Source: Antedon mediterranea (Eukaryota > Animalia > Echinodermata). Taken from it: DNA of 64,000 nucleotides. The notes beneath the pieces were generated by a model. That model was not told where the DNA came from and did not search any database. It worked only from the letters and a program-made list of their open reading frames with translations. The stretch spans positions 17,357,648-17,421,647 of the forward strand of contig NC_092673.1 in the NCBI RefSeq assembly GCF_964355755.1. Reading direction: 5' to 3'. Of the stretch, positions 15,541-63,890 are shown in pieces. The translations under genes and the position numbers were made by a program. The number at the start of each line of letters is the position of its first letter. Position 1 is the stretch's first letter.

Positions 15541-15965
15541 AACAATAGGTAATAACTTGATTATGGATGCATCTTATGCATGCGTTATGTGATGTTTTGT
15601 TCCAAAATCAATAAATCTTATAGTGTACTAGCGCAAGCAAGTACTTCTGTACACTTTGCACATCAATAATTCACCATCAATGCAATTACATTTTTAAAAA
15701 TATAAGAAAACGTATTTTGTTGCTCCTAATCTATACTTTACATGCATTAATGGAGATAATTTTGACACAATTTGATTTGTATATCACATGACTTTTAAAT
15801 TTAACCCAACGTTGTAACTCTTTATATATGGCTCTGGCTCCGCTCATAATTCATTCGTTTACATTCGTTGAATAGGAATTATGATATCTTCCTAATACTA
15901 TCTTGTTTAAATGAAGTTTGCAAACGATAGATAGGTAAACAAGACTTATATTTTCTATTAAATAG

Positions 15966-24980: not shown

Positions 24981-26636
24981 GCAGAATCATCGCAACATTA
25001 GTGCTCACTGTAAAATGAATGTTTGAAAAACATGCAGTCACAAAATAAAACAGAATCTCAGTAATATATTAATTTTTAATATACATCTGTATCTTTGTTC
25101 TTGTTTTGTTTGTGTAAATATATTAAAATAACAGATGTTTATTATTGTATTGATTGATTAATAATACAGGTAATAATGTTTTGTAAAAGCTTCGAAAGTA
25201 TGTTAATATTATTTCTGATTGGAGAACAGTGACTTAGTTGAATCTGGTTGAATATTCTTGCAGTCGCCTGTTGTTGTTCAGTTGAATGACCTGAATAGTG
25301 GTGGTAAAAATGATTGGTGATTTGTCTTTAAGATGAACAACAATGTATGTTTTCTGGTGGTGTCTGGTAGTGTGTAGGCCTAAATTAAAGAAGTAAATAT
25401 GATTTATCCTCCTTGTTTGTACCTCCTTCCTAAACACCACGAAAATAAATACCATAAAAAAAACAATTACAAATAACAAAACATAATGTTAGCATAATGT
25501 ACTTTACAATATTTCATATCATAACCCTACACAGGAAGCTAATGGAATTAGAAGCCTCTCTTTAAAGTCAAGCATTATGTGGGCCTAAAAGTGGGCCGAA
25601 TTGTCTCATTACACCTGGGCCAAATAATCCCGCATTCAGCTATTGCCTATATAGCAGCTTAGGAATAGTAATTGGTAAGAAACATAACCTAGCCTTGTGT
25701 TATCACTGCATTTGGTGTTTGAAAAAATGGAAAAAGGGTGCTCAATCTCTCCTTTGGCAGGCGCGATGTGCATGAGGTAGAAACTGACCACCCGTTCATT
25801 TGAAATGGTGCACAACATGTAGCACTGCCGCTACACTGACTGCATGTGCTCTCGATATATTGCAAATGATTTGAGTGACCTAATTGTGACATAGGAAAAT
25901 GGCCCAGAATTACCGAACGCAGCATTTTTGCCTAAATTGGCCTAAAAACACATTTTTTGTACAAATTTTCTGTTCTAATATAGCTTAATGAATTAAAAGG
26001 TGCCCCAGCTTGAACTTTGCTAGTATTGGATGGACGGTTTAGGAGGAGATAGAGGAACAAATTTAATTACAATATAAAAATATAATCTGTAGTTTTTAAG
26101 CAATGGGCAATACGTTGACCATTAGATGCCTTACTGAATTCAAATAAGTCTCACACATTTGGCATATTTCAGTAAGTCAGATGCTGATATATTTTTCTGT
26201 TATTCTGGACAGTGCACATGCAATAATACAAACATTCTGTTTTATAGTGTACAACACCAGTTTGGTGATAAAAGATAAGGATAAGAGATATTGAGAGAAT
26301 TTTGAGTAAAGTATATTCAGTTATTTGGAACTTTGTTAAATGAAAGGGAAAATTACTGAAAACATCACAATCAATGGTTGGATCTCAATGGTGTATACAA
26401 AAAAAATATGAGCAAAAAGCTAAATCAAAACGATGGGTTAAAACAGCCAGAAAGGAATTGCAGAGCTTTCGGGTAGCACTAATCCTTTTTCTTTGATTGA
26501 ATTCGATTTGAAGGAAGTATAACAAAGAAGGAACAGTCTGGTGAAGAGAGAAAGTAGAAAACAATGAAGATAACTTGCATATAAAATAATGTATTTGTTT
26601 ATTTGTCTTTGCAGATCTCCACTTTGAGCAACAATA

Positions 26637-27701
26637 ATGGCAAGTAATGAAACAGTGTTAAAACCATATCCTAAGATTTTAGAGATACCATGTAATGATA
26701 TTGAATTTGGAGAACTTATTGGAAGTGGTTCAACGTGCAGTGTGTTGAAAGGGGTTTGGAAAACTAAAAAAGATGTGCCAGTTGCAATTAAACGTCTCAA
26801 CCATTTTCGAGAAATGGAAATTGTTACATTACGAAAAATTAAAGCTGATGAAGAAAAAAAACACATTGGTAGAAAGTTCATAATAGAGATTCTAGGGGTT
26901 AGTAAGAAGGATCATATGGATTGTATTGTAATGGAATATGTAGCAAATGGGTCATTATATGATTATTTAGGCCAGAAACGAGAACAGCAGCAACCTCTTG
27001 GGAATGACCAATTTTTCAACTGGACCCAGCAAGGTGCTCTTGCAATACAGTATCTTCATGAACTTGATATAATTCATCGAGATATCAAATCGCCAAATTT
27101 TTTAATTACTGATAAACATAATTTTAAACTTTGTGACTTTGGAATTTCCTGCATAAGTGATAAAACAGTTACAACAACATATACTGGGTCTCTTCCATGG
27201 ATGGCTCCTGAAAGTTTTGAGGCTTTTTTTAAATACGATGGGTCAAAAATAAAGGTATCAAAGCGTTCAGACATATACTCTTATAGTGTTGTGATATGGG
27301 AAATGTGGACTTGTCAAAAACCAGAGTTTTCGGTGAAAGTTGATGGTATGTCAGGGAAAATTTTCATTTAAAAATTTTGTTTAGCAATATTGCTAATCAA
27401 ACTGATTTTTAAGTCCAGAAACATAGTTTTGTATTGTATTTTTTGCTACACAATTTTCAAAATGTGTAGCAATAAGGTTGTTTTGTATAGCTTTTTGCTA
27501 CGCTACACTGGCGAAAATGTTCCCTGTATGTACCAGTTAGATGAAGGAACACCCACTAAGTTAAAGGATATGCTGCATAGTTGCTGGGAGGTGGACAGAA
27601 TGAAAAGGCCAAGTATTCCAGATATACTAGAAACTATGGAGGAATTGGCTATTACAATGGAGGAATTGGCTATTACAATGGAGGTTAAAGATTTTAAAGA
27701 G
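26637..27701 (+). CDS. Protein kinase domain, tyrosine-kinase-like group (MLK/ZAK-like); coding exons 1-2
   Basis: GSGSTCSV, VAIK, HRDIKSPN, DFG, GSLPWMAPE, SDIYSYSVVIWEM, CW...RPS. Confidence 0.92.
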
Positions 27702-30700
27702 GTATGTTTCCTACAATCAAATTCAGTATCGTTTCACTCCAGCTGGACTAGAGATTTTTTCCCAATGAGAAATACAAACTTGTCAAATCTAGTTCACCCA
27801 AATCCTGTGTATTGAAAATGCAATTACTAGCTAATGCAAGTGATCCTTGCCTACTTAAGATCCCCTTAGTCAAACTTAAAACTTCTGAACACTTCTTATT
27901 CTTATTATGATGACAGTCCACATAAATAGTATTTCTCTCCTTGAACATTATATTTCTTTATACAAACTGATTGGCTCTGATTTTTTTTATCATTTTCTCT
28001 GTAATTGTACTGTACTTGTCTTGTTTTTGTTATTTATTTATAAAAATGTTTTTTTGTGTTTATATGGTCATCTCGTGACAAGTACTTCTTGACATGTACT
28101 TCTAGTACTATAACTGCTGCTTGCTTTCAGCTCCTAAATGAGTCATCCTCTTGGGACGTAGCGATCTAAAGCAGCAGCGTGAAAAACATTGTTTTGATGA
28201 AATATAAAGTGCGTCTTATACATCAACGATAAAAAAATACTGATATTTTACTCTCAGTTAGGGAGTGCGTCTTATACACAGGTGCGACTTATACACTGAA
28301 ATATACGGTATACTATTCCCCACAATATACTCCGATTGTTTATGAATATATTTGATTTGATCTTTAATAATTTGCAGTATAATTTTTATTATGCTACTGT
28401 ACCTCCACACGCGTGGTCCAGTCCAAAAATAAACAAAAAACTAAAATGGCTATCGCCACCAACGGCCAACTTAGTTGAAACCAGGAAGTTGCAAGGTGAT
28501 GACAACGTGAACCCGGAAATTACTTCTACCGCGTACGGTTGAAAATCTACCGATGAAATCAATAATTTTGTTTTAAAATCCTTTATAATATCTTCCTAAG
28601 ATATAAATATGGAACAATATCGTAATAGTGAGAACTAATGTTATTAACGTTTCGGGAGGTAGGTATCCAAGGCGGAGATTTGTCTTTGAAGTTTTCCATT
28701 GTGCTTGCCTATGTCACAATTAAGCATAATTTATATATAGATTCATAATAAATGAAACAAAAGAGTATAATAATGAATGGATAAGCTGCTTTAAAAAAGA
28801 GGTACTTTTAATTTTCTTATAGTCAGTAGAAGAGTATATTCCATCTGCTATTACTGCTCATGGTACAGATGTTAAGGAAGCATATAATGAAGCATTGACT
28901 GAGGGATCTGTCAAAATCAATCTTGGAATGCTTAAAGTGATTGGACAGGAAGGTGTGGGGAAAACTTGCCTCATTAATGCCTGTCTTGGAAAAAAGTAAT
29001 ACATAGTTTAAGACAGTGAAATTGACAATATAAACTTTCCATCATTTCAGGCCTGTTTGATGTACAATGAGTGGGAGTATGGAATGCAGCAGGGGCACAG
29101 GGGCAGATCCGGTAAATTGTAATGCAAAAGATAAGACATCAAATTGAGCTCAGCCCTTCATTTCACTATTTTTAGGATTGATGATACAATTTTTGTCGCA
29201 ATGTGAAAGAAGTAAATCGATGATACAAATTTTGATTTGCGATGTGAAGGAATTGCATCGATGATATGAATTTTGTCACGATGTCCATGAAATGAATTGA
29301 GTAAAAAATATGCTGATGAAAAGTGATGAACAGATGCTTAATAATCATTACCATTAATACAGTAGTTAGATCGGATTGCCCAACCAATTTCTAACAATTA
29401 GGCCTATGCTACAATGGCTACTTGGTAGGGCTTGTTTATGAGGATCCACTATCAAGGCTAGCCCTCCAAGGCCTATGCCCTTTTAAGTCAGGCATAGCAT
29501 AATATAATTCATATATACAAACATAATAGGCATATAATATTATTATTTTGTTCTTACGGTGAGGTTATAGCCCTGGGGTTTGTCGTTTTTATGTCCGTTT
29601 TAAGAAAATAAATAAAACACAAAGTTATGATAATGTGAATGAGACATATGGAGAGGAGAGGTCCAGTACCAATGCTTTGTTAACCTTGTGGGGTTGACCC
29701 AGCAGAGATTGAGAGGATGACATATGCCGCCAATAGTTTTTACATTTCATTCAAATCTCGACAAAATTTGTATCACTCAACGCAAATTTATCCAATGCAT
29801 TTTATTCACATATACACGAATCATAGTTACGTAAACAGCGTTCTATACGGGAGTGTTTTTTACATTGAAAAAAGATAAAAATGTTATTTTAATTTTATTG
29901 ATATTGCAGCGCAATTAAATAGCAATAACTGAATACAATTTATTAAAATATATCAACCATCTTAAATTGATTGAATTAACTAATCAATCAGTTTTTGTAT
30001 TTATAAATCATAAATAAAGGTTAGAAATGTTTTGATTATTACATTATTATTATAAGTATGTATATTTATTTATTTATTGTTCTTTATTGGTTTTCAATTA
30101 CTCTATTTACTTTCAGATTTGAGAAAGACCATAACATTACAGATGGCATAGAAGTTATAAGGACAGCAAGCAAAACATGGAATGAGGCTAAAGCTGATAG
30201 TGGTAAACATGAATACATTTAGCACTGTTGTCATTTATCTCCATTATAATAAACACAAACAGTCTCATATCCTCAAATACGCTATAAAAAATATGATATA
30301 AAATAATATACTGTAGTAGATAAAATACTGTATTTTAGCCTGTTTCCGCTATAAGTAATTTTTTGGTGGTCCTGTTAAAATATTTTACCCAAACTGCCTT
30401 TCATGAGTTGCAATTCTTATTGACCTATGTAATAATAATAACTTTATTGTTTCTCTTTTATAACAGAGGCACAATTCTCAAGAGATGTGCAACAACAAAA
30501 AATTAATATGGACTTATCTTAATACACAATCAAATACAAACATTATAAAATATTGTTACATTAAAAAGTATATAAACATTAGGTTATAAAAATACATTCA
30601 ATACATTTGAGTGAAAAGTAAAAGATTGTGTTATGGAAGGATATTATAAATTTTGTTGCGTTCTTTCCATGCAGTTGTTACAATATTTGTCCAAAGAGGT

Positions 30701-33700
30701 TACTTGCTAAAATAGTTAATATTGGTTATACATTGGATTTGATATTCTTCATGAATTTCTAGGTCGTCAAAAAAAAGGTGATATTTAAGTTCAGGTGAGC
30801 TTGACGTGAATAAGTCCCATATTTTATGCAAATCATTGTGGTATAGATCTTCTTTAAGTTGTTTAAATATTGAGTTTCTAATATTTATTAATCTAGTACA
30901 ATTGAATACAAAATGATAAATTGTTTCTTTTTCACCACAATTACATAACAAACATGATCCTAAATTTTGTGGTGACCAAGCTTCCTTTCTTCCTTCGAGT
31001 GGTAATGAGTTAGAACGAGCTTTGAATTTTAGACTTGATGCATGTATACTAAGCATATTTTATCAATAAATGGGGTAAAGAATGTTGTAATTTTGCCAGG
31101 CCTTTCTACGACTCTTTTTCACCCACAAAAAAAAACCAGATTAATATAACTAATTGTAACTTTAAATAGTTTATTAATAGGCAAAGGATTCATAAACAAG
31201 TTTATAATATGCATATGTTAGGTAAAAATGCACAATCGGCATCTTCTATCAACTGGCAATGAGTCGCCAAGATGCGTCCTTTCTCCTGTATTGTTCAGCA
31301 TATATACAAATGAGTTTAAAATTAAATTTGATGACTGCTGTTTAATTAAGTATACAATTTGTTCAACCACATTATGAAATGAGTTGATAGTTCAGGGTAT
31401 AGTAATGTATCTATATATTTTTTTCTCTACAGGTAATCCTTCAAAACAGTATCAAAATTGATTTGAATCCTTACGACTAGCAAAGCAATCTAGCCACATA
31501 CTACATTACCTTAAATAGTACTAGTAGAATGAATTCCAATTTAGGACAATTTGTTCAACCGAATTATGAAATGAGTTGATAGTTCAGGGTATAGTCACAT
31601 ATCTATATATTTTTTTCTCTACAGGTAATCCTTCAAAACAGTATCAAAATTGATTTGAATCCTTACGACTAGCAAAGCAATCTAACCACATACTAAATTA
31701 CCTTAAATAGTACTAGTAGAATGAATTCCAATTTAGGACAATTTGTTCAACCGCATTATGAAATGAGTTGATAGTTCAGGGTATAGTCACATATCTATAT
31801 ATTTTTTTCTCTACAGGTAATTCCTTCAAAACAGTATCAAAATTGATTTGAATCCTTACGACTAGCAAAGCAATCTAACCACATACTAAATTACCTTAAA
31901 TAGTACTAGTAGAATGAATTCCAATTTAGGACAATTTGTTCAACCGAATTATGAAATGAGTTGATAGTTCAGGGTATAGTCACGTATCTATATATTTTTT
32001 TCTCTACAGGTAATCCTTCAAAACAGTATACAAAAATGGTCAAGAATAAATTGAGAGAAAGGAAAACTGTAAACGTAAGTCACTATAGTGTAATTGAAAC
32101 ATAAAATGAATAAAATAGTATCCACATGGATGTTCTACTAATACAAACCAGTCGTTTAAGCTTCTTTTGTAAATGAACCAATGAGACATATGACTCTATG
32201 AGCAGCAGTTTTAATTATCCAAAAAAACATTTTTTTTTTGTTCAATTCTTTTATAATTTGGTTTTGAAAGTTTTCTTCTGTTAAACGTAGATTATTTAAG
32301 TTTTGATAAACATTTAAATCTTTTATATCCGTTTACTCTTTTTTTATTTCAAGTGTCATGATGATAAACCACTTACATATGATTCCAATTACAAAAATGA
32401 TGATTACAGAAATGATGACGAGAACAATGATGATTACAGAAATAATGGTGTGTAACTCCCTTTCTAATTTTGTTGATATCGTTGTCAATAATGAATAAAT
32501 AAGTCCTAAAAGTATGAGTCATATTCATATATCATCGCTATTTGAAATAATCAATTAGATTGTGTTTAAAAAAAATTTATTTTCCAATTTAAAGTAACTA
32601 AACTATTACTATGTAATATAGTTTTTATGTGATCATATTTATATTTAACAATTATGTTGACAGTCAATTTTTTGTCAAAGTGAATAACTATTATGTGACA
32701 TTAAAATGGCATATTCAACAAAAAATGTGTTCTAGAGTTGACCAGCCGATTCTGTAAGACCTTGAAAAATAGTCATTAGGGACTTTACGGAACAGGACGG
32801 GAAGCCACAGAATGCTAATGAATAATTTATAACTTTTTGTGGACAATAAAGTTGCCATTTTCCCGTTTACGGAGAATGACTAGAAATAATGTACATATAA
32901 CCTTAAATATACAGTTCAAATTACACTTAAACATGGAATTTTTAAAACTCTAAATAATATTTGAACTTAATTTAATGGTTTAACGTTAAAAGCAATACAT
33001 TTTGTGCGGTGTTTGAATGCGAGACCTCTAGCTAGGAAGGCTATGCTGTATCACCAGAGCCAAGCGATTCAGAAGGGCCATGCGCTGCGAGGCAGGGGAG
33101 GGAGAGAGATACTGCCGGTTGTCGTCTTTGCACAAGGGTATGTAACTAATAAAACAGCTATGTCGCCTGTATATGATTTTACATTCTAGCGAACACAGGA
33201 TGTCCGTTGTCTTCCCCTAACTGTCCTGTTTTGGCTGGGGGTGGCCAGATGCCAAAATAAGCATGCTTGAATTTTACTTGTGTTTATGATAACCAACAAA
33301 ATTTGTTTCCACTACAGGTACTGCTACAGCAGCTGAAGCTATTCCAATTGATATAGATAAACAGTTAGTTAAAGATGTAATTCAGGATATTGTGCAAAAT
33401 AAGGAGACTTTGGAAGAAACATTCAACATCTGGGACCATGGGGGACAATTGATATACCATGGTATACATCGTGTAAGGCTGATTCAAACCTATGGAATTA
33501 TGCTTTCGTATCGTACGTGGCGTACAACTTCATGTCTGAACCACTAAAAGATTAGTCAAAGCCACCTCTTTATGACACTGACCTTTCGTTCGTTCGTTCT
33601 GAAGGTCCAAGATTAGTGTACAGATGCTTATGATACGATCAATGATTCTGACCTCCAACCAATCAAATTTACTCTTGCATGCCAGATGTTGGCTAAATCT

Positions 33701-36700
33701 GTTTCACTTCAGTTTGTAACGAAAGCGTTAATCAATTCAAAACACTTTGCTGTTTCTAACTACTGTGAAGTAGCTTTACGTCTAGAGGTATGAATGAATG
33801 CCAGGCTAGTGATGTGGAGGTCGTGGATTCGAGTCCCACCCAAGAATTACTTAAATACAAATTATGACAGAGTGGGGAAAATCATCTAACCAATTGCTAA
33901 GTATAATATGACCTTGCTTGCGATACGAAAGCATTTCTCCATGTGTCTGAACCTACCCTTAATTTCAAAATATGTAGTAGAACAGAACATTGATATTTTA
34001 TTGAATAAGATCTGGGTAAGATCTTTACTTCAAAAACATTAAACTCCACATCAGCCAGTTAAAAGGAAATGTTACTAACATAACTGTATGGCTAAGGTAT
34101 GGTATGCCTTTCTTGCCTATTCAGTAATCACAAATTTCTTTCCATGGTAACTGCTTATTGTTAATATTAAACATTTTCCATGCCTATATTCCAACAAAAC
34201 AAATCAAGTATTTTCAGTAACTCTTAGTTCTTATTTTTGTTTTCTATCATCACTGATTGTAGCCACAATATTATATGAATTTGTTATAGAGAATTGCTCT
34301 GATAAAAGGAGTAACAGAAATAGATTTTAGATATTTTTTATTTATATTAGGGTCCACCTACAAATTCAAATAATATTAACGAATATTAATCAGCCAATAT
34401 TTAAATAAAAAAATAATTTTTGCAGATCTTCATGACATCACGATCACTTTACATTGTAGTGTTTGATCTCAGTAAACCCTTGGATGATCTTGCTACTTTC
34501 ATTAATTCTACTGGAGTAAGTATTTCTAGAGCATGGCGGCAGTAAGGTATTGTGATTGAACAAGTCTTCTAATTTATAAAAACAAAAACAGTTTGACTAT
34601 TATAAAAGATTTTATTTCATACCTTCCAGATAAGATGTAGTAATGAACATTTTTTTTTAAACTAACCATTTCAAGTTTAACTTTAAGATGTTTTAAAGTG
34701 TTCTTATAATTTTTTTTTCAGAGAACATGTCAACATCATTGGACCAATCTCCAGTTCATATTATCTTACATCCTGTCAGTTTATTCTCATAGTCGTATTG
34801 TGGAAGAGGATGAGGAGAATGAAGTTGACAAACCAACTATCCTTATTGTGGGTACACATAAGGGGAAGCTTGGCTGGACTGAAGAACAGCAAAATGATGA
34901 GGTTAATACTTCTTTTGTTTCTATATTATTATAAATAGCCACAACCAAAGATACATTGCAGTTGTAACTGTTTTTAAATATTACTTTAAATAATTTACCA
35001 AATTGACACATTCTTATTATGCGTAAACTGTTATTAAAATTATATACAAACAGGCAGAAAAGGCGTTTAAAATTATTCAAGATGTGCTTAAAACAAAACC
35101 ATATGGAAATCATGTCTACCACAAATATTTTGCCATTGAAAACAGTCAACCAACTACAGATAAGAGCTTTAGTGATCTCAAACAAGTTATTGATACACTT
35201 ATGAAAGCTTTAGAAAAGCCTTTTCCTTTAAAGTGGATGCGTTTTCGATGTGATCTACAAGATCTAAGAGGAAAAAAACAGCCCTCCTTTTCTTTGTGTC
35301 CTTTAAAAGAGGTAAATGGTATTTGTTTTGTTTACATTTTTCGAAATATTAAGGCGCAAGTATCTATCAAGTATCTAAAAAAAAAAATTTACGTTTCTAA
35401 ATATAAGTACCCTTTAATTAAAAAATGTCCATAGACTAGCCAATTTAGATTACAATATCCAAAATCAAATTTTCATCTCAGATATTTGCTGCCATTGTTT
35501 TATTTATAAATTGTGTGTTTGAAAATACTGAGGTAATTAGCCATTGAAATTGAATATTTCAAACTATTTTTTCATGTAATACCCACATTTTTTATTTAAT
35601 TCTGAATAATACTAATTATTATTTCTTTTAGATCAAAATTCTGACAAGTAAGAATGGTATTGTTGAAGAAAAAAACAAATCAGTCCTGCTTAACTTCTTG
35701 TACGATCTTGGTGAAATTGTTTACATGCCTGACAACAAATTATTAAGAGATAAAGTCGTGCTTGATCCGATGAGGCTGGTTGAAATTGTCACCCAATTTG
35801 TAACTGTGGTTCCCCCAAAATATCCCGTAAGTAGACTCATGTAATGTCTTGCATTGTAAAAACATGTTAAAGTAGTATAATTACTGTTCTGTGTAATTTA
35901 TTATTCCTTAGCAAAGAATTTGTCATTGATAATATTTGATAGAGATGCTTAACATTTTCTATAGATAAAATAAAAGTATGCCGTAAGGCATCATTTGTAA
36001 TTTACTGTAATTTTTTTACAAGTTTTAATTAGTTCACTTTTAATATTCTGCTTTCAATCTATTATAATTGAAGCACTAGAAAAGCAAACTAACTTGGAGT
36101 AATTTCACAGTTTAACCCTTTCACTGCGTGTACCCGGTATTACCGGGTATAAACATGTCGTCGAACTTCATATAACCATCATTACCGGGTACGGTATAAA
36201 ACTATTTTCCTGCACTACAAGCGACCTCTATATTTTTTAATATTGTCTTCTGTAATGATGTCATTAGTATGCAAATTACCATTTTTTTACTCCAAACCGT
36301 AGACCAACCTTTTACCCACCACAAAAGTATTTACAAAATTATCTCATTTAGTATGTTTTTGCAATTAATTAAAAATCACCTGTCTCTCAATGTTATGCAC
36401 AGTGAAAGGGTTAAACCACAATACTGTATTATACCAACACATGGTTCATCTATATTCTTCTAAATGCTTACTGTATCTATATCCGTCATCCTCACAACTG
36501 TTATAAACACAAAATACGATGCATGGTTGATAGTTGGTGTTTTTTTAGTCTGCTAAATTTAGAGAATCTTTTGATAAGCTGGACAAAGGCATACTGGAAG
36601 AAGACTTGTTGCGAAAATTATGGAAAGATAGTAAAGTTGACAACGGAAAGAATTTTGAGTTCCTTGTAGCACTGATGATTCAATTAGGTTTTATTTGTGA

Positions 36701-39700
36701 GAGGGAGACAACCAGCAGCCAAGATGTGGCAAGTACATCTACAGTAGGTTTTGTTTCTTTAATCTTTCATTTTATGCATGTAAGATTTGGGATAAAAAGT
36801 ATTATTTTAATAGTTTGGATGTTTAATGTTCAGACAAAGTTTGAATAAACTTTCTAATGAAAATGTCTACATGACAGAGTATCTTTAGTTTGCTTAAAAT
36901 AGTTTAAATGGCATTGTTACAAATTAACAATTTCAGAAATCAGTTGGAAAACGATCCTTTTTTGTGCCACTGCGACTTGCTATCAAGACAAGTAAAGTGA
37001 GACAATTACCTGATGATTCACAATCTATCAGCAGGCCTATCTATTATGACTTTGAGGGATATCTGCCAGACGTGTTGTTTCCGTATTTAATTATTGAATT
37101 CCTTAACAAATTTCAAAAGGAAGGAGTTAACCCAATACTCGCATGTAATTATGCAGAACTTTACCTCGACGAAAATCATCATGTGACTTTGTCTCTTGAC
37201 AAATTTATTACTAAGAATGATGAGCGAAAGTTCTTGTTAAAGGTAATATCTAATCTCTAATGTTCAATAAATATCACTAAATTATGAAAGTTAAATATTG
37301 TTGCTTAGTCTTTCCCTAATCTGTCATGTCAGAATCTACTTTAAATGCATATAAAACTAAAACTAAATTCTGATAACAAAACATTACATCTATTTTTACT
37401 TTCTAGATGGCTATTAAAAGAACAGATTCTTTTGATGAAACGAGTAATGAGGCGCCTTCAGCTGAAGCATGTAAATTGGTATGTATCTATACCAGTTACG
37501 TTATCTATCTATTTGAAGGTAGTTATGAAAATACACGTAGAAAGTTTTCTCCTAAATTTTTTGTCAGGTTTGCTTGATGTCTGAAAATGTCTGTATATTT
37601 ACAATGTATACTGATTTTAAAAACCAATTACATATTACTTTCCAACATTGCATTGTATAGTATAATAATGAATGTTTATGAGATGGATGGTAAGAATATT
37701 TTATGAGTTGAAAGATTGACTGCACTATTTTTAACAAAGCAGAGCCGAAAATAGAGCAGTCAATGAATAACATATTCTCTCCATTCAACGAATACAAAAC
37801 ATTCATTATTTATTTTATAACACACCTATTTTTTATTAAATTTATCCATCGTAAATCAGTGACGAATGTTAGGTCCGGGAAGCTAGGTCATTTAAAAAGG
37901 CAGTGATCCAACTTTGGACACGGAGTAGAACCGTAAACAGCGTAAACAAATTACATCCATGTTCTCTTTTATTTTTGTAATTGAATTGTAAGTAATTTTA
38001 ATATGTATCTGCCTATTAAAAGATTTATTCCCAATCAAGTTTTCAGATTTACACCATAAATCTAAAAACATTGCCTGCCTCACATTACATAAAATGTCTA
38101 ACTTTGTAAGCTACTGCATCATTGATGCTTTCATATTTGTTGATATGATATGTATTAAATTCAAATCAACATTAAATTTATATCTTTAGGTTTTGTCAAC
38201 AGTTGAGAAGTCATTCGAGCAATCTAAAGATGGTGGTAGAAGAGGGATTCCATTCAAGAGATGCATTCCTTGTCGGTGTAGTGATCAATTAGACAAAAAG
38301 CATTTTCAAATTCTTAAAGATTTCCAATGCAGGAAGTTTACATGCACAGAAACTGGCAAGTCTGTTACGATGGATGTCACATGTTACAAGCGGCTGTTTG
38401 GAGGTAAGAGTCATTAAATTTATTTATTTTTATTAAGTACATTTTCATTAATACACTACTTTCTTCATGAAGGACTCTCACTCATCCCTAGAGCACAGGA
38501 AACTGAAAAACAAAAGGCTATTTCTGTTCTATAAACAATTTGTGACCTATTTCTGCAAAAAAGTGACATGTTTAAATAATTATAGAATAGAAAAAGAGGA
38601 TACTGTACCTTATTTGAAAATAGACATATTTGATAATACTCTTCCAGTAGTAGTACAACATAATCATTGTTGATAATCTATACATTGTTACAATATGCTG
38701 CTATTAACTGTGATATCTTCATTCCTCTTACCAGTAGTAGTACAACATAATCATTGTTGATAATCTATACATTGTTACAATATGCTGCTATTAACTGTGA
38801 TATCTTCATTCCTCTTACCAGTAGTAGTACAACATAATCATTGTTGATAATCTATACATTGTTACAATATGCTGCTATTAACTGTGATATCTTCATTCCT
38901 CTTACCAGTAGTAGTACAACATAATCATTGTTGATAATCTATACATTGTTACAATATGCTGCTATTAACTGTGATATCTTCATTCCTCTTACCAGTAGTA
39001 CTACTATCAGAATCATTATTGATAATCTATACATTGTTACAACATGCTGCTATTAGCTGTGATATCTTCATTCCTCTTACCAGTAGTAGTACTATCAGAA
39101 TCATTATTGATAATCTATACATTGTTATAACATGCTGCTATTAGCTGTGATATCTTCATTCCTCTTACCAGTAGTAGTACTATCAGAATCATTATTGATA
39201 ATCTATACATTGTTACAACATGCTGCTATTAGCTGTGATATCTTCATTCCTCTTACCAGTAGTAGTACTATCAGAATCATTATTGATAATCTATACATTG
39301 TTATAACATGCTGCTATTAGCTGTGATATCTTCATTCCTCTTACCAGTAGTAGTACTATCAGAATCATTATTGATAATCTATACATTGTTACAACATGCT
39401 GCTATTAGCTGTGATATCTTCATTCCTCTTACCAGTAGTAGTACTATCAGAATCATTATTGATAATCTATACATTGTTACAACATGCTGCTATTAGCTGT
39501 GATATCTTCATTCCTCTTACCAATAGTAGTACTAGTAGAATCATTATTGATAATCTATACATTGTTACAACATGCTGCTATTAGCTGTGATATCTTCATT
39601 CCTCTTACCAATAGTAGTACTAGTAGAATCATTATTGATAATCTATACATTGTTACAACATGCTGCTATTAGCTGTGATATCTTCATTCCTCTTACCAGT

Positions 39701-42700
39701 AGTAGTACTATCAGAATCATTATTGATAATCTATACATTGTTACAACATGCTGCTATTAGCTGTGATATCTTCATTCCTCTTACCAGTAGTAGTACTATC
39801 AGAATCATTATTGATAATCTATACATTGTTACAACATGCTGCTATTAGCTGTGATATCTTCATTCCTCTTACCAGTAGTAGTACTATCAGAATCATTATT
39901 GATAATCTATACATTTTTACAACATGCTACTATTAGCTGTGATATCTTCATTTCTCTTACCAGTAGTAGTACTATCAGAATCATTATTGATAATCTATAC
40001 ATTGTTACAACATGCTACTATTAGCTGTGATATCTTCATTCCTCTTACCAGTAGTAGTACTATCAGAATCATTATTGATAATCTATACATTGTTACAACA
40101 TGCTGCTATTAGCTGTGATATCTTCATTCCTCTTACCAGTAGTAGTACTATCAGAATCATTATTGATAATCTATACATTTTTACAACATGCTGCTATTAG
40201 CTGTGATATCTTCATTCCTCTTACCAGTAGTAGTACTATCAGAATCATTATTGATAATCTATACATTGTTACAACATGCTGCTATTAGCTGTGATATCTT
40301 CATTCCTCTTACCAGTAGTAGTACTATCAGAATCATTATTGATAATCTATACATTGTTATAACATGCTGCTATTAGCTGTGATATCTTCATTCCTCTTAC
40401 CAGTAGTAGTACTAGTAGAATCATTATTGATAATCTATACATTGTTACAACATGCTGCTATTAGCTGTGATATCTTCATTCCTCTTACCAGTAGTAGTAC
40501 TATCAGAATCAATATATAATAGCAATAATGTCACTCTGCAGTGACAATACCTGCTAAATGTGGTGTTCACAAAAGTAAATTGTTGCCTATAAAACAACAG
40601 TTACATTTGTGATAACATGATCTGTCATAGCTTGCATCCTAGCATATAGTATTGAATGAATTATTGTTTTATCATTATTTCATTTGTTACAGCGGATGAT
40701 GTTGGGACATCCGGTTCAAATCAAGGTATGTTAAATTTAATATAAATAATATTTGGGTAATACTATTACTCTACTAATTTCTTTAAGAAGAACTCCCTCT
40801 CTCTCATTATTTCAAACTTTTTTGTGTGTACTTATATTGATGGTATCATACTCATTTTTTCATTCCAGAAATCTCAGAGAATGAATTCCTGCAACTGTTA
40901 ACTGATACAGCAGCATGGTTTGATGGACTTGGATATCTCAAAATATTGAAAGTTTTATACAAAGACCATCTTTCAAAATCGAATGTAGAGGTGGAAAGAG
41001 CTAGTAGTGTTTGGGATCTGCTACAGGATTTAAGAGCCTCAGGAAGTTTGAGTCCATCAAACCTTACTATTCTATATGACACAATAACAGTAACCAAGCA
41101 ATTTGGCTTCCAGTCAAACGTTGAGAATCAACCTTCTGAAGATATTAAGGATCATGTAGTATCAATGTTGACACCTTTCAGACAGAAGGTTTATCAACTG
41201 GGAGTGGAACTTACGAAGGATGAAGTATCAAAACTTGCCAGGTTATTTAACAATATATTGGTAAAGACATATCAAGACAGCTGGAGTATGATTATGGACT
41301 TTGAACATAGAGGGATCATTGATAAGGATTTCACAAAGTTGGTTGAGTTTCTTAAAGTTTTAGAACAAAATGGAATGACAAAAGCTAGGAAGATTTTCAT
41401 TGATGGTTGGTTGGTTGGTTTATTTGTTTTAGTTCATCATCATGGTTCATTGTTAAAACATATAGTACATACTGTAGTACACTACAATCAAGTAAAAGTA
41501 CTGTAACAAATTAAACATTTTAGGCAGATTCAAATTATTATGATGTCCCTTTCTGTCTGTCTGCTATTATAGTGGATTAAGGATATCAACCAACATTCGG
41601 TTAAATGGCAATTCAGCTGAATTGAATGACAAGTTAGTAAAATAACAATAATATGCTCAATGAGTCCAATGGAAAATGAGCTGAACTGAAACGTATGTGT
41701 GTATTCCATGCTATTATCCCTATCAATCAGATTGACCCAAACCTTTGGAACATAATAATAATCTGCATTTTAAATTTGTGAATGCCTCTCAATTCCTACA
41801 AAGCCCAGCATACCATTTGAGGGTCAAAAGACCGACTCTGGGGCTGATTCAGATCTTTACTATTGCAAGAGGATCATTAAGTTGTATAAGAAAGCCACAG
41901 GTTGACAGCGTACCCATCACCACCTCCATGCCAATTAATGCACCCGGACACTTCATAAACTTAGAGTTTAGATTATGTGACTTCTGCCTATCCCATTAAT
42001 AACTTACTGAAACTAGAGAATGCAAAACTCCACCTACAATATAATTTTCCTACACATTAAAATCTCTCCCTGAGAAAAGTGGTTTGTTTTTTTCAGTAAG
42101 GTAATTTGGCCTAATTGCACTGCATAACAAATTAATGTGAATTTTCCATGGTTGAAATCCTGCCTCAAATTGGGCTGAAGAAGGGAGTCTTTTTTAATCA
42201 TTTCTTTTTTTTTTAATAATTTTTTTGTAAATTTTGACATTTGACCCTGCCTGTTCAAAATTGAATTACATTATGATGGATAATTTTGGCCAAATTTCAG
42301 TTTAAAAGTGTGGCCTGGCAGGATATATAAAGAAAACATTTATAGTAGGTTGTGACCTTGACCTTTCACGGAAGCATCCACCTACGCAGAATGAAAAAAA
42401 ACAAACAAGAAGTCAACAAGTAGTCTACATAATTAGATTTATTCTAAATAAGTCTTAAGTATATATGTCTTCTGGTATAGGTATGTCTTCTGGTGCAGGC
42501 GCATCTTCTGGTGCAGGCGCATCTTCTGGTGCAGGTGTGTCTTCTGGTGCAGGTGTGTCTTCTGGTGCAGGTGTGTCTTCTGGTGCAGGTGTGTCTTCTG
42601 GTGCAGGTGTGTCTTCAGGTGCAGGTCTTTCGTCTGACACAGGTGAATGTCAAGGTAACTATCAAGGCACTAGAGCAACACTCTACAGCAAAAAAATATA

Positions 42701-44056
42701 TTATTGTTGATATTTAGCCAGGAGTTTTTGTATACAATATTAAAATAGACTAGAAATCTTTATTACCATTCTATGCTAAGTGATTGTAGTTGTTTATGTA
42801 GGGTGTAATCTAAATTGATTAAAATCTATATTTATCAGGCAACCTTAAAATAAATAAATAAATAAAGTTTTTCTTTGACTTTCTCCAAATCTATTCCATT
42901 CATTTCTTTTTCAGGTAGACATTATACATTAATCCTGTTTGTTGCTTATTGTTCACACAATATCAGCTTAGATAATTAAACTTTCCAAAATGTTATCACA
43001 AATGTTCGTTTAAAGTTTATATGAATGTTTCTATGTAATAGTCAGCAGTTATCGTATAGCATATACTTAAAGACGTATTGTCCCCCAAAAACATGAAAAA
43101 TGAAGATTAATTAAATCAGACTTTGAATAGGTTATTATGTAGTTTTAAAAAAGTAAATCACTTCCGAAGAAAAAAAACGGGAAAAAATAATGTTTTCACT
43201 TATAAAATAACATGATAAATGGTTAAATTCAACCAAAAATCCATTGGCTGGCAGCCAATTTGACCATTTTTTGCTTTAACTTCCAGTTTTTTCAGGTAAA
43301 TAATTTTGTTTTCGATCCAATTTTTGGTCAAAGTCAATAACTATTAGTGACATTAAAATGGCATATTCAACAACAAAAATTTAAAAAAAATATTTTCAGG
43401 GGGACAATACATCTTTAAATCAACAAACATCCAAACTATTTATTTTTTATTTAATCAAATTTATTTAATTTTAACATACTATTAAATGTTTTAGGTTTAA
43501 CTGTGTTCATACTTTATTAAGGGTTAGGGTGTTTAATTGTTTAATTATTTCTCACCATATCTATTACTTAATGAGCTTACTTTGTTGTTATTTCAGGTAT
43601 GCATCATGGCGGGTAAGTATTTTCCACATATGTACTGTTATTTGATCAAATTAATTTTGTTAATAAATTGGCACTTTGTGTGTGATTTACAGAATACATT
43701 AAACTTTTATTTTCATTTCATATATTTTGCCATATAAAATGTATAAAAAACAATTAAAAGAAAACAAAATCAATAAAAAAGAAAAACATTATACTCTGCC
43801 TCCCCACAAAGGCCGACAGGATTACCAAAAGCATAAGTAAATACTGTCTAGTGGCTCTCGTCAAGGTCACTACAGGGCTGGTGATAATCAACTAAAGCCT
43901 GTTTTCTAGTCTACGTTATTCGATTTCAACACGATTGTTTGAAAACAATCAAGTTGAAAGAAACAACAATTTTAATACTTTATTAGAATTTTAATTATTT
44001 AATTGTACCTTGTTATTTCTAGTCGAAAGAAAAAGAGACGTTGCAAGTTGTTATAA
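26637..44056 (+). CDS. Roco-family protein: TKL kinase - Roc - COR - tandem DED-like - SGA linker - polybasic CaaX (about 1258 aa, spliced)
   Basis: Exons: 26637-27345, 27511-27701, 28823-28995, 30117-30202, 32010-32074, 32354-32447, 33318-33472, 34426-34515, 34722-34901, 35054-35311, 35632-35826, 36549-36743, 36937-37242, 37407-37478, 38190-38403, 40693-40725, 40869-41405, 42481-42654, 43597-43612, 44023-44056. Phases are consistent and the total is 3777 nt. All introns are GT-AG except the uncertain first-intron acceptor. An in-frame TGA upstream of 26637 fixes the start. Confidence 0.78.
28823..35311 (+). CDS. Roc GTPase domain exons
   Basis: G1 GQEGVGKT; switch I ITDGI; G3 WDHGGQ followed by IFMTSRSLYIVVFDLS; G4 LIVGTHKG; G5 region FAIENS; COR start P-LKW. 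Confidence 0.88.
30430..31056 (-). mobile_element. Non-LTR retrotransposon 3' fragment (RTEX-like, CCHC zinc knuckle)
   Basis: ARSNSLPLEGR...CLLCNC...ETIYHFVFNC; AATAAA and a (TTA)n tail near 30430-30450 on the minus strand. Confidence 0.6.
31355..32030 (+). repeat. ~192-bp tandem repeat (about 3.5 copies) that includes the exon-5 acceptor
   Basis: TTTCTCTACAG|GTAAT with the AG ending at 31432, 31624, 31816 and 32009. Confidence 0.9.
33476..33959. mobile_element. MITE (PIF/Harbinger-like) inserted at the exon-7 donor, with an internal tRNA-SINE-like fragment
   Basis: Imperfect TIRs including ATGCTTTCGTATCG / CGATACGAAAGCAT; TA(A) flanks; B-box-like GATTCGAGTCCC at about 33826. Confidence 0.5.
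35632..38403 (+). CDS. COR domain exons
   Basis: LNFLYDLGEIVY...VVLDPMRLV, GILEEDLLRKLW, LMIQLGFIC, FFVPLRL, LPDVLFPYLI, and a Cys/His-rich end (CIPCRC...H...C...C). Confidence 0.82.
36116..36410. mobile_element. piggyBac-type MITE
   Basis: TTAA|CCCTTTCACTG ... CAGTGAAAGGG|TTAA. Confidence 0.8.
38640..40511. repeat. Intronic 85/88-bp minisatellite, about 21 copies
   Basis: Unit ...TTGATAATCTATACATTGTTACAACATGCTGCTATTAGCTGTGATATCTTCATTCCTCTTACCAGTAGTAGTAC...; repeated spurious ORFs every 88 bp. Confidence 0.95.
40869..41405 (+). CDS. Tandem death-effector-like (death-fold) domains, exon 17
   Basis: FLQLL...LKVLYKD...SVWDLLQDLRASGSLSPSNLTILYD, then FRQKVYQLGVELTKDEVSKL...MIMDFEHRGII...FLKVLEQNG; both fit the DED helical pattern. 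Confidence 0.62.
42012..42400. mobile_element. Helentron-like non-autonomous element
   Basis: AAACTAGAGAATGC start, TGACCTTGACCT motif and A-rich end. Confidence 0.35.
42468..42630 (+). repeat. 18-bp repeat encoding (SSGAGV)n inside a symmetric phase-1 exon
   Basis: Unit TCTTCTGGTGCAGGTGTG, about 9 copies; exon 42481-42654 is 174 nt. Confidence 0.75.
43071..43414 (+). mobile_element. Kolobok-type MITE
   Basis: TTAA TSD on both sides; TIRs AGACGTATTGTCCCCC / GGGGGACAATACATCT. Confidence 0.82.
43597..44056 (+). CDS. Terminal micro-exons encoding GMHHGGRKKKRRCKLL* (polybasic + CaaX)
   Basis: 16-nt exon 43597-43612 (TTTCAG| ... |GTAAGT, phase 1 to 2) joined to 44023-44056 (TTCTAG|T CGA AAG AAA AAG AGA CGT TGC AAG TTG TTA TAA). 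Confidence 0.72.
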
Positions 44057-44957
44057 GGTATAGTATTAAACTTTAAATTTGAATTTGTTTCTAAAGTCAT
44101 TGCATTGTTTTTCTATTCAAAGACTAATGTAGTTTCAAAATGTAAGAAATCATTTGTCTTTTTTCCTACAAAACCTATAAAATGCTTTTTGTTGTAGTCA
44201 TTTGCAGTATTTTAAAACAACTTTAAATGAAAGCACTCAAGAATATTTCTAAAAAGATGAGGATTTATGAAACATTTTTCTCTTTTAGATTACTGGTTGG
44301 TAGTTACTGTATATATGATGGATTAACTGCTGTTGGTGGCTGCAGTATCTGGTGTGTACATAGTGACCAGGTCTCTTACTCAGTCAAAAAATGCAACAGA
44401 TGAAAAACAGTACACTCTTCACCAATCTAACAGTAGATTTCATACATTTTAAAGGCATTGTATGGATAATATTGAAGATAGATGTGAAATTATAAAGATA
44501 TGAAAGCCTATGGGAGTTTTGACACAATGACAAATGACTAAAGATCCAGGGAGTTATTGCCATCGGAGTCAAAGTTACAATCCGCTACCACCACCCCTCT
44601 TTTTATAAAAAACCAAATAAACAAAAAAATTATTTTCCCCTCAAGAAATTCAGCCATGCTTGTCAGATGAAACGACAACATTGATTTAAGAATTTTTGTA
44701 AAATACAGCTTTCTTAAAAAAGAACTTTACAAATTTCAGTTTATTACCATTCCAAATTCTATTATTGATTTTATAAAAAGAATAAAAAAATAAAATTAGA
44801 CTTTTTAGTTTGCCTCAAGGAAATTGTGTAATTGACCAAAAAAGGACCAAAGAAAAAAGAAATCATTAAATGAAATAAAGTAGGTAATGCAATGCCTGTA
44901 TTATGTATTTAAATAATAACTCATGTTTGATATTTAGTTTTATTAAGCTTAACATCC

Positions 44958-59767: not shown

Positions 59768-60815
59768 ATGGATTCCGAAAGCGATTTAGAAAGTGTTTCA
59801 TCAGATAGACCTAGTAGTAGTAGTTCATCATCAAGTGATGAGGAAAATGGTACTGGCCTTATAATACCATATAATTTCGAACCACGTTTTGAGGAACATG
59901 AATTACAAGACATTGATGAAGAAGCCCAAGGTGAAGATGTTGACATGATGGCTGCACGCCTGGATAATTTAGAATGGTAGGTGTTCCCCTTGTGGTTGTT
60001 GTAGTGAAGCGTCTGCTTGATTGGGCTAGGCCTAATTAATCAATCGAAGCTAGAGCTACCTCAGTGTTTCTAAATTCTAAATATACAATCGGTTTTTTTT
60101 TTTCAAATTTTGTGAGATGCCATACGTTAATATAAAGTCCCCATCGTAATTTGTTTGATGATTATTAGATGGGTCGGATTTGGGACGGTGGTTTAATAAT
60201 AGGCTACTCCTTGGGCTTGGGTTTGGTTATAATAATAGATGGACTAGGCCTAAAGTATTAATATTAATATTCTGGTCATAGTTCAAATGGGCATTTGAAT
60301 TTCACTTGCTTGAGTGACTGCTGATATGATCAACTAATTATAATCATAATAATTAGTTTTATAATGACTAAATACATGTTTTCATCTTGTTCAGGTGTTC
60401 CTGTGAACATTGCCAAATCATGGGCTCAGGGGAAGAGTGCATCTGCTGCAAGGAGTGCGAAAACACAAGTGCTAAACTTGAAGACAATGTCAATCTGTTC
60501 AACAATGATGCTCCATTCTCCTGCATCACAAATCATCCAGGTTTCAAGTCTGTTGCTCTTGACCCTTGGGTGCTGGAAGTAGCATGGCTTTCGTATAAGC
60601 AACACTATGATAAGAAAGTTATCTATAACGGACCAAAAAACAAAAAGTACCGTCACATATCGTACAGACAGTATGCCCGATGGATACATGGATATGTCGG
60701 AAAAAATATCCGTATAGTGCTTCCGTCTTGTGTTGTCTCTTGCATAAGAGCACATTTCCCACCACCTGGAGATGACCCGGTGTTTACAGGATTTAAATTA
60801 CCTGACCTAAATTAA
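59768..60815 (+). CDS. KolX accessory protein (P2X7 C-terminal ballast-like Cys-rich domain), 2 exons
   Basis: Exons 59768-59976 and 60395-60815 (phase 2, giving W-CSCEHC). Motifs ECICCKE, CITNHPGF, YRHISYRQYARW, LPSCVV..IR..FP; acidic/Ser-rich N-terminus. Confidence 0.82.
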
Positions 60816-61090: not shown

Positions 61091-63890
61091 TTACTGGTTT
61101 TTAAACCGGCTTGTATGTTGGGCAACTGCAGCACTTTTTTCAGGTCTTTCAAATGCTGCGCACAATGATGGTGGTATGGTCTCTGTAAATGCATCTAGAT
61201 TTGGTTCCATAACAATCTCAAGAAGACTCTTGAATAACTCATCAACATAATTATATGTACATTCTGTTAAAAGTTTTTTAACAATGTAACCCCCTTTCTT
61301 GTACTTAGGAAATGATATTACGTATTGCTTTTCTCCAGCCTTATTTACCATTTGTTCTCTGGTACTGTTCTCATTATAGTGAAGAGCAGCTATGAAAAGT
61401 CGACTCTTCATTCCACTATATGAAAAGTGGAACATTTTAGGAGCGAAATGATTAATAAGGCTATGGTACCCTTCCACTGATGACGTTTGCCCATGAGGTG
61501 AAGAATTGCGAATGTCCTTCACCAACATTTTGGTTTCAACAAATTTTTGTAAGGCATCACAAGCTTCAGTATCAGCAGTCAACCACTTTGTTAACCGTTG
61601 GTCTGAAGGAGACATTACCGGATGGGCACATTCCGTATATGGTTCAGGATGTCCAGTATGAAGATTTTGTACATGTCTTACCACAGACTTCCACTTTGCT
61701 TCAATGATATCTTTTTCATCAATGTTGGTGGACATTACACACCAGTAATAATGGTTAGAAATAGATTTTTGCCAATTACCTAAAAGGTTACACGATTTTT
61801 TTGTTGATATGGCCTTGATCTTTTTCTTAATACTTTTTGCAATGTGCCAGCAGTCAAAATAATGCTTAATGTCTGGAAAATTATCCCTTAAATATTTTTG
61901 TAGTTGTCTATGTCTATCGGAAACAATTGTACTTATATTTACTTTGAAATCTTTAAAGACATCCAATGTTTTTTGTAGACCCTTAAGTTCCATATGATAA
62001 GATGATTTAACATCACTACTCTGAACTAATTCAACATTCAAAATCTTATTTTCGGTCAAGTCAACTGATGTGTATGAACCATATTTTGCACTGTGGCCCA
62101 TACTGTCACAGCGTCCATCTACTCCAATAGCAGCGTCCATCTACTCCAATAGAAATATCCTTGCCCTGTAATTCAGCAAAGTGCTTATCCCTTTTAGAAA
62201 ACCAATTATTCCTTACAACTCTGTGTAAGAAATTTTGTTGGTGACGGAAAAAAGTACGTTTACTAATGGCGCTCACATTTATACTTTTTAGCGCTCTTAA
62301 AAATTGTGTGGGTGTTGAGCCAGAAAAAAGAATAGCCCCACTTAGTAGAATGTTACCCATTGGGGTACCTCTAGCTTCTGGCTGACTTTTCCACTCGCGG
62401 TTAGTGTGGCAACATAAGCATCTTATGTTTGCAATAAGCATGCTTCCCTTGTTACGACAACATACTTGAACTTTACTGGAAAAACAGGAAAGGCATATAG
62501 AAAGTAGCATCAGTAGGTGATTGTGAAAAACAATGTATTTTGGCTGTCTATGTGCATCCCCATTAAATCCTTTCATCTCATCATCTTCCATCTCTGTATC
62601 CTCACCATCTGAAACCGATACATCCTCTTCCGGTCGATAATCTGAATCGCTATCATCTTCTGTCGACTCATCAAAATCTTCATCATCTTCATCAGACGAT
62701 TGTTCTTTGTATGTTGGTTTGGCTTTTTTGGGTGCCACGACTTTAGCTTTGCTCATTTTTCTTCGCCGAACACGTTTTCTTTGCTTTCGTGTCTGTGTGC
62801 CTCTGGACACCATAAGAGGCTTATCGCATACACTTGCGAGCTCCTGTTCATCCTCTTCCTCATCCTCTGTTCCAGTAATAAGCTCCCTGATCACTCCCGC
62901 CTTTTCTCTTTTAACAAATGCTGACCTGTTGGAATGAATATTAATACTATTAATAATAAATATCAGACAAACCTAAACATTTTTTCTTTTATTTATTGAA
63001 TCTATTACACTAACCTCTGTGCTGTACACTCTTTGGCCACCTGACCACCATCGTCGGATGTCTCCCTCACAACATGTATTGTTGGTACCGCTGTTTTGGC
63101 ATTCAGTAAAAAAGCCTAAAAGTAGTGAGGAAACCGTTGTCTAATTAATATTAAGGGCAAAATAACGTAAGCAATATAATTATAATATAGTTGTTAGTTC
63201 CCACTTACACCGACAGGACATTCTCCTACTGAGCATAACAGTGTAGGCATTGACTAACCTCCATCGTGTTTGTACAGCATTCAGTAGTACTAATTAGGCC
63301 TGGCTAGGCTAGCCCTTATCCCATTATTATTAATGTAATAAGCCAAATACATAACAACTAGGTTAGGCCTAGTTGAGTTATCTGTGTGGTGTAGGCAAAA
63401 CTGTTATTACTATTACTTATTAATTACGTTAAGTTTATTTAAAGATAAACCAACATAAAGTAAATACTATACATATATATCAGGCGGAGCAACTGTACTG
63501 TATGTATGTACAGTAGTTTTAATGTTACTGCAAATTATGTGCCGGCCCGCCTAGAAGCTAGGCTTGGCCCAGCGGGCCCAGCAGGCCTAACAATAGCGAC
63601 GGCGAACGTATTTTATGCAGTTTTTGTTGAAGGTAAAATATTAAAAGTAAATTCATCTAATTAACAAATACTTACTTTGTAGCTAGACCAGCTTTGAATT
63701 GACCCATGTTTGTAAATGAATCGTCTGAAAAATGCTTAAAACAGAGCACTGATCGAGCTGTGGGTTTCCACTTATCGCGTTTTGTACGTACAAATCTTGT
63801 CCATTGCCTGGCGATGAAACTGTCCTTTGGCCACCGAAACAATAAGTTATTTTCATGATCACAATTCGCAGCAACACAGCGAGAAGGCAT
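61091..63890 (-). pseudogene. Kolobok THAP-domain DDE transposase, frameshifted
   Basis: Exons 63890-63676 (THAP: C-x4-C...P...W...CFKHF), 63115-63015 (AVPT box) and 62925-61091. Catalytic motifs DGRCDSMGHSAKYG, VSDRH, FDCWH, TSSVEGYHS. A 22-bp duplication at 62109-62152 shifts the frame, and the exon 1/2 phases mismatch at a T run. Confidence 0.85.

Follow-up and report, generated by a model that had tools for sequence, protein, structure and literature searches.

Predicted replacement of a transmembrane tail by a polybasic CaaX end in a Roco protein of the crinoid Antedon mediterranea

A stretch of 64,000 nucleotides of the Antedon mediterranea genome (hereafter the window) contains a gene that a first-pass annotation took for a Roco protein with a concealed C-terminus, RKKKRR-CKLL, resembling the prenylated tails of Rac and K-Ras. 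This raised two questions, namely whether a Roco protein with such an end is indeed encoded, and whether the tail is an old feature of the family or a recent replacement of something else. We therefore reconstructed the gene, compared it with its paralogues and looked for traces of the tail in sequencing contigs.

The Roco gene and its predicted C-terminus

Eighteen exons between positions 28823 and 44057, all with AG/GT ends, could be joined by conceptual splicing into 958 codons, in which the only stop is the terminal one. This exon chain was derived from genomic DNA, and the sequencing runs compared with it are not on record as RNA; one of them, X1, was considered as a source of RNA and rejected, as it covers intron stretches in the way DNA does, and it gave no match over 43960-44460. 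No splice junction was found among the contig joints listed, which has no bearing on expression. The first 13 exons (28823..38403, + strand) encode the Roc and COR regions, as assigned by homology and by Pfam COR-A. The P-loop (G1) and G3 motifs of Roc are present, together with a G4-like motif, and COR follows directly, colinear exon by exon with the Antedon paralogue P0002. The COR-A match lies on exon 35632-35826 (E = 9.6e-8; 32.5 bits, slightly below the cut-off of 35.3), and single short exons gave weak Roc matches (E = 0.013 and 0.081). The Roc-COR region shares 50-87% identity with Antedon Roc-COR proteins, paralogues that themselves carry PF08477, and 28823..38403 is 96% identical to P0010 over 520 columns. 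When the Roc-COR region of P0002 served as the query, 15 of the 20 matches were A. mediterranea paralogues.

Downstream of COR, the + strand holds a 33-nt linker exon of phase 1-1 (40693..40725), weakly matching the linker of P0008, an exon encoding tandem death effector domains (DED-DED; 40869..41405; Pfam DED, E = 9.8e-11 over two stretches), and a Gly/Ser/Ala linker exon (42481..42654) that contains an in-frame repeat of 18 nt and weakly matches the linker preceding the tail of P0013 (E = 0.008). A search with the DED exon matched crinoid proteins only, the best being P0002 of A. mediterranea at 78% identity. The COR-A and DED matches and the identity to Antedon Roc-COR proteins support the proposal that this gene encodes a Roco protein. 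In a quick tree of COR, from which P0022-P0026 were left out as distant or unnamed rows, the window sequence grouped with P0010, P0011, P0016 and P0017 (SH-aLRT 100). The COR is thus nearest to the P0010 group, whereas the closest relatives of the DEDs and of the tail are P0002 and P0013, respectively, so that exon shuffling seems to have assembled the gene from several modules.

The Roc G4 motif, located in exon 34722-34901 (region 33320-34901), reads G-T-H-K-G and is devoid of the usual Asp, a peculiarity shared with P0002 and P0010. Since this Asp usually confers guanine specificity, its absence from all three suggests that Rocos of this clade may prefer another nucleotide. In the same part of the gene, a 192-nt tandem repeat (31354-32035, 3.5 copies) includes the acceptor and the 5' part of exon 32010-32074, which are thereby present three more times.

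A coding region for a TKL-type protein kinase lies upstream of the Roc exons (26615..27701, + strand; Pfam PK_Tyr_Ser-Thr, E = 3.8e-39). Its catalytic motifs are intact and it is 33% identical to the N-terminal kinase of P0020, a paralogue in which a kinase also precedes Roc. The inclusion of the kinase and Roc exons in one mRNA is uncertain, because there is an in-frame stop near 27369 and the position of the intron is ambiguous: the likeliest donor (27346) and acceptor (27490) mismatch in phase, and the alternatives that preserve the frame rely on weak splice sites. The mismatch and the stop may mean that the region is damaged, that its intron is unusual or that the kinase belongs to a gene of its own. 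Elsewhere in the window, two long ORFs of 710 and 439 aa (5270-7402, + strand, and 14254-15573, - strand) resemble LINE reverse transcriptases by eye. Two further ORFs are convergent; we take the one at 60372-60815 (+) to resemble a Cys-rich protein like the P2X7 C-terminus and the one at 61091-62972 (-) to be transposase-like.

The predicted protein shares the Roc-COR tandem with LRRK1/2, DAPK1, MASL1 and the Rocos of Dictyostelium and Trichoplax, but it differs from them in that no LRRs were seen, in that any kinase would precede Roc instead of following COR, and in its predicted C-terminal CaaX. Animal Rocos are described as diverse in architecture and algal Rocos as subject to exon shuffling, and Trichoplax Rocos are reported to have death-fold partners (PMC11378527).

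The DED and Gly/Ser exons lead into two small exons in phases 1-1-2, which yields the predicted end RKKKRR-CKLL-stop. The first is a 16-nt micro-exon of phase 1-2 (43597..43612, + strand), bounded by ttcag and gtaagt; segments at the matching position are found in P0008, P0013, P0014 and P0016, as judged by eye. The second, of 35 nt (44023..44057, + strand), is supported by splice sites and by homology to paralogues, and encodes the six basic residues, CKLL (44042-44053) and a TAA stop (44054-44056). The end of the stop is reached 34 nt into this exon, and a phase-1 GT donor follows at 44058. Scored with simple custom weight matrices, the micro-exon (acceptor 3.8, donor 7.8) ranked first among the 164 AG..GT candidates of 42700-44000 and is one of only two candidates on the entire + strand of the window to reach its score, whereas the second exon has a modest acceptor at 44022 (2.0) and a donor after the stop that scores 0.8. 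The two exons, their matching phase and the additional donor just behind the stop are as the first-pass annotation described them, and its qualification of the splice sites as strong suits the 16-nt exon better than the second one. Its expectation that automated gene models would miss these exons does not hold generally, since the RefSeq models of paralogues contain their counterparts. The intron before the micro-exon carries an interspersed, MITE-like repeat of very high copy number (43067-43418; contig depth 100- to 1000-fold over background). Poly(A)-like hexamers are present at 44065 and 44616.

In the conceptual translation, CKLL matches Cx[V/I/L][L/F/I/M/V], with Cys in fourth position from the C-terminus and a Lys, which is not aliphatic, at a1. 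The last 15 residues bear a net charge of +7, and no hydrophobic window was found within the last 130 residues of the predicted protein. In the tails of Rac1 and K-Ras4B, the combination of a basic run with a prenyl group targets the protein to membranes. Lipid anchoring of this Roco protein is a prediction from its sequence. The motif corresponds to the profile of yeast GGTase-I, in which a Leu at X points to this enzyme (PMC10942308), in agreement with the GGTase-I-type CaaX first proposed; the tetrapeptide CKLL itself was not found in the text or in one supplement of that paper. A search of the open-access literature returned no paper linking CKLL with geranylgeranyl.

Origin of the tail

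We considered the possibility that the tail is an old family feature. The first-pass annotation had declared beforehand that its reading depended on the conservation of the CaaX in paralogues. Such conservation was not found in A. mediterranea: a GGTase-I-type CaaX terminates none of the 29 homologues fetched, one of which ends in another Cxxx. Judged from these sequences, the tail is consequently not a feature of the family.

What does terminate 5 of the 15 A. mediterranea Roco paralogues is a hydrophobic transmembrane tail of one or two helices. These proteins, all uncharacterised RefSeq predictions, are XP_071948735.1 (P0013), XP_071948758.1 (P0014), XP_071948801.1 (P0002), XP_071947615.1 (P0008) and XP_071949165.1 (P0018). 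The other ten have no transmembrane tail in their models, and among the latter are the COR-nearest paralogues P0010, P0011, P0016 and P0017. The transmembrane-tailed proteins have in common with the window gene a Roc-COR core and a tail module made of a linker, a short segment, a basic segment and a hydrophobic exon, which in P0002 is also preceded by DED-DED; they differ from it in that one or two hydrophobic helices follow, with neither Cys nor stop at the CaaX site.

The basic exon of the window aligns with the juxtamembrane exon of these paralogues. Its C-K-L-L-stop-D is matched by W-K-F-L-K-D in P0013 and by W-K-L-L-Q-E in P0027, and the alignment extends through the exon starting at 44289. 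The stop thus falls on a codon that was ancestrally Lys/Gln, while a Trp/Leu position is taken by the Cys. Six A. mediterranea proteins have a homologous segment; a Cys at the CaaX site is found in none of them, and the ten positions before this site hold 0-4 basic residues in these six segments, compared with six here. As the Cys is missing from all six segments and the paralogues run on through the position of the stop, both changes are most simply read as derived. The small exons therefore appear to be an inherited juxtamembrane module and not an ancient concealed tail of the family. The resemblance to the tails of Rac1 and K-Ras4B, in which a basic run also directly precedes the CaaX, is convergent, because there is no homology and the tail of the present protein derives from a juxtamembrane exon.

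The predicted 3' UTR retains a decayed remnant of the ancestral transmembrane exon (44289..44410, + strand), recovered as tblastn pieces and by frameshift-aware alignment. It consists of three colinear pieces matching the hydrophobic exon of P0013, with three deletions, two of which are frameshifts, that take out most of both helices. The frameshift-aware score, obtained with a custom aligner, was 61, whereas 148 random tiles of the window averaged 23.8 and did not exceed 39. The tail of P0013 was needed for detection, that of P0002 alone giving a tblastn match of 5 residues at this place. With the donor at 44058 and an acceptor at 44288, the first few codons are still read in the ancestral frame. 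What lies behind the donor is a decayed counterpart of the hydrophobic exon of P0013, so that on this alignment the donor after the stop is a relic of the link to the transmembrane exon.

A profile built from the five transmembrane tails, which is unable to detect CaaX-ending relatives, matched those five and one new protein, the UNC5C-like P0027 (XP_071948789.1). The latter bears the same module as P0002, P0008, P0013, P0014 and P0018, pointing to a shuffled anchor cassette, and Rocos with a transmembrane tail are unusual in their own right. In the RefSeq model of P0016, what follows the basic segment shares 78% identity with a Roc exon (window 28842-28937) in another frame; this model was probably joined wrongly and would represent a further copy that has lost its transmembrane exon.

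Copies, constraint and alternative readings

These findings suggested a lineage-specific switch in which a transmembrane tail gave way to a predicted geranylgeranyl and polybasic anchor, and we hold this reading with moderate confidence. It presupposes that the stop and the remnant are not assembly errors, which is indicated by their occurrence in sequencing contigs. The stop is seen in a contig of run X4 (record 15) identical to the window over 43995-44059, and the remnant is present in runs X2, X3 and X4 with 0-1 differences from the window; these three runs come from one sample, possibly the window's own source. X4 holds three versions of the basic exon: that of the window, an allele with an Arg to Gln change at 44025, and a divergent copy. 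Sample S2 has about 49 nt duplicated in tandem (44061-44100), beginning 4 nt past the donor that follows the stop.

The divergent second copy (X4 record 13) is about 90% similar to the window, with 12 extra in-frame bases and six letter differences, of which three are unlisted. Two placements of the 12 bases were compared, and one fits both numeric fingerprints (a distance of 38 for 44042 and a record end at 44069). With this placement CKLL is retained and preceded by an additional K-C-G, which puts an extra Cys two residues upstream. A version with Ser in place of the CaaX Cys was rejected, as it misses both fingerprints, distances being assumed to run along the read. The second copy therefore likely keeps CKLL. 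It likely has the same stop end as well, a stop deduced from the fact that the record ends 30 bases after the last unique letter, which suggests a merge with a window-type path across the stop. The window copy has probably lost the 12 bases, because the longer form aligns with P0014. A variant at 43611 in X2 suggests that the second copy also possesses the micro-exon. Over 44283-44460, the depth corresponds to one contig per run, the downstream exon of the second copy lying outside this view.

The gene appears to have remained constrained after the loss of its tail. In the 2877 coding nucleotides upstream there are no frameshifts or stops, versus two frameshifts in about 206 ancestral nucleotides of the remnant. 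At the rate of the remnant, about 28 frameshifts would be expected upstream, or 14 if the two represent one event, and their absence points to continued constraint, unless the tail module arrived already broken. The units of short repeats within coding exons are 21, 15 and 18 bases long, all multiples of three. At least nine differences were found in the DED exon, four synonymous and five non-synonymous among those listed, with alleles and paralogues mixed, so that they carry no weight here.

We considered the possibility that the truncation is real and the gene alive, but that CKLL is a mere by-product, any prenylation being incidental and unselected after the loss of a dispensable tail. The anchor is apparently dispensable in these Roco proteins, since P0010, P0011, P0016 and P0017 lack a transmembrane tail in their models, as do two thirds of the Antedon paralogues. 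The basic run stems from the juxtamembrane segment and is not invariant: besides the Arg to Gln allele, the second copy has a Lys to Gln change, and such substitutions count against selection. Chance was assessed by truncating the paralogues at random. Among 14,563 positions of the 15 paralogues, Cx[VIL][LFIMV] arose at 11, three times with a basic run (≥4 basic residues), and within the five transmembrane tails it arose at 3 of 435 positions, less than 1% in both cases; these rare matches must be read in the light of the choice of this locus by a scan that favours striking motifs, which inflates them. Yet a by-product would require both a stop and the gain of a Cys, absent from every homologous segment, at the exact spacing, and the second copy likely retains the motif despite the adjoining indel. 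We consider this explanation unlikely, though it is the most probable of the alternatives.

A second alternative is that the modelled splice form is not made at all, because the gene is not expressed or has recently become a pseudogene, or because read-through of the DED or Gly/Ser exon or skipping of the micro-exon leads to a soluble protein without CaaX. Leaving out the 16-nt exon does result in a predicted end other than a CaaX, and the possible ends reached by read-through or skipping stay open for 6-36 residues, again without CaaX. In addition, no database protein equals this gene (the 78% identity of the DEDs being the closest), the kinase junction is ambiguous and the acceptor at 44022 is modest. 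This reading has to accommodate 958 intact codons and 18 intact exon boundaries, as well as a micro-exon that is the best pair of sites in its intron and that the second copy, to judge from the X2 variant, appears to carry. It is in our opinion quite improbable. The transmembrane exon could also have arrived already broken through exon shuffling, as the lack of a transmembrane tail in the models of the four COR-nearest paralogues would allow.

Finally, it is very improbable that a transmembrane tail is still obtained through stop read-through, a stop-less allele or an intact exon elsewhere: the phase-1 donor after the stop does persist, but translation past the stop would run into a frameshift and, 12 codons into the following exon, another stop; the tails of six paralogues, used as tblastn queries, revealed no intact transmembrane exon anywhere in the window, and no variant at 44054-56 was found among the differences listed, which cover sites away from contig ends.

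Proposed explanation and significance

The switch from a transmembrane to a lipid anchor could be explained as follows. A nonsense change likely severed the ancestral tail, leaving six basic residues and CKLL at the C-terminus. The mRNA would include both small exons and would escape nonsense-mediated decay under the 50-nt rule, because the stop sits 1 nt before the last likely junction, the one leading to the remnant exon; a possible donor at 44352 (score 4.6) could create a later junction. GGTase-I would prenylate the Cys, Rce1 and ICMT would process the end, and the basic run would favour acidic membranes, for example the plasma membrane. The predicted Roc-COR and DED regions would then sit on the cytosolic face of membranes, where GTP-dependent pairing of Roc-COR may cluster the DEDs and recruit DED partners such as caspase-8 or a FADD-type protein, a step that rests on knowledge of these families in general.

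In a more specific version, which we put forward tentatively, the swap was recent and selected: a nonsense change and the gain of a Cys would have converted the juxtamembrane segment of an immune-type Roco with a transmembrane tail into a Ras-like polybasic CaaX, yielding a prenylated subfamily in which the sister copy has a possible palmitoyl Cys, the old transmembrane exon meanwhile decaying in the 3' UTR.

Both types of anchor occur among other large GTPases: GBP1, GBP2 and GBP5 are anchored by a CaaX and atlastin by a transmembrane segment (PMC9005921). This GTPase family is unrelated to Roco. In bats, GBP5 has lost its CaaX through a nonsense change creating an early stop, which altered its anchor (PMC13128109), and a CaaX loss is also reported for OAS1 (PMC10683996). 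The present case differs from that of bat GBP5, since the stop appears to create the CaaX instead of removing it, replacing a transmembrane tail whose old exon is still visible. Neither a prenylated Roco nor a CaaX gained by a stop was found in the open-access literature, searched by title and the beginning of the abstract.

If confirmed, this protein would be a Roco anchored by prenylation, for which that literature offered no precedent, and its CaaX would have an unusually legible origin from a stop codon, with the ancestral and derived states and the discarded exon all visible. The finding is so far confined to one or two copies specific to a crinoid lineage, which limits its reach; if confirmed, it would make the origin of prenylation signals, and a possible re-targeting of death-domain signalling proteins by a change of anchor, testable with a few tail constructs.
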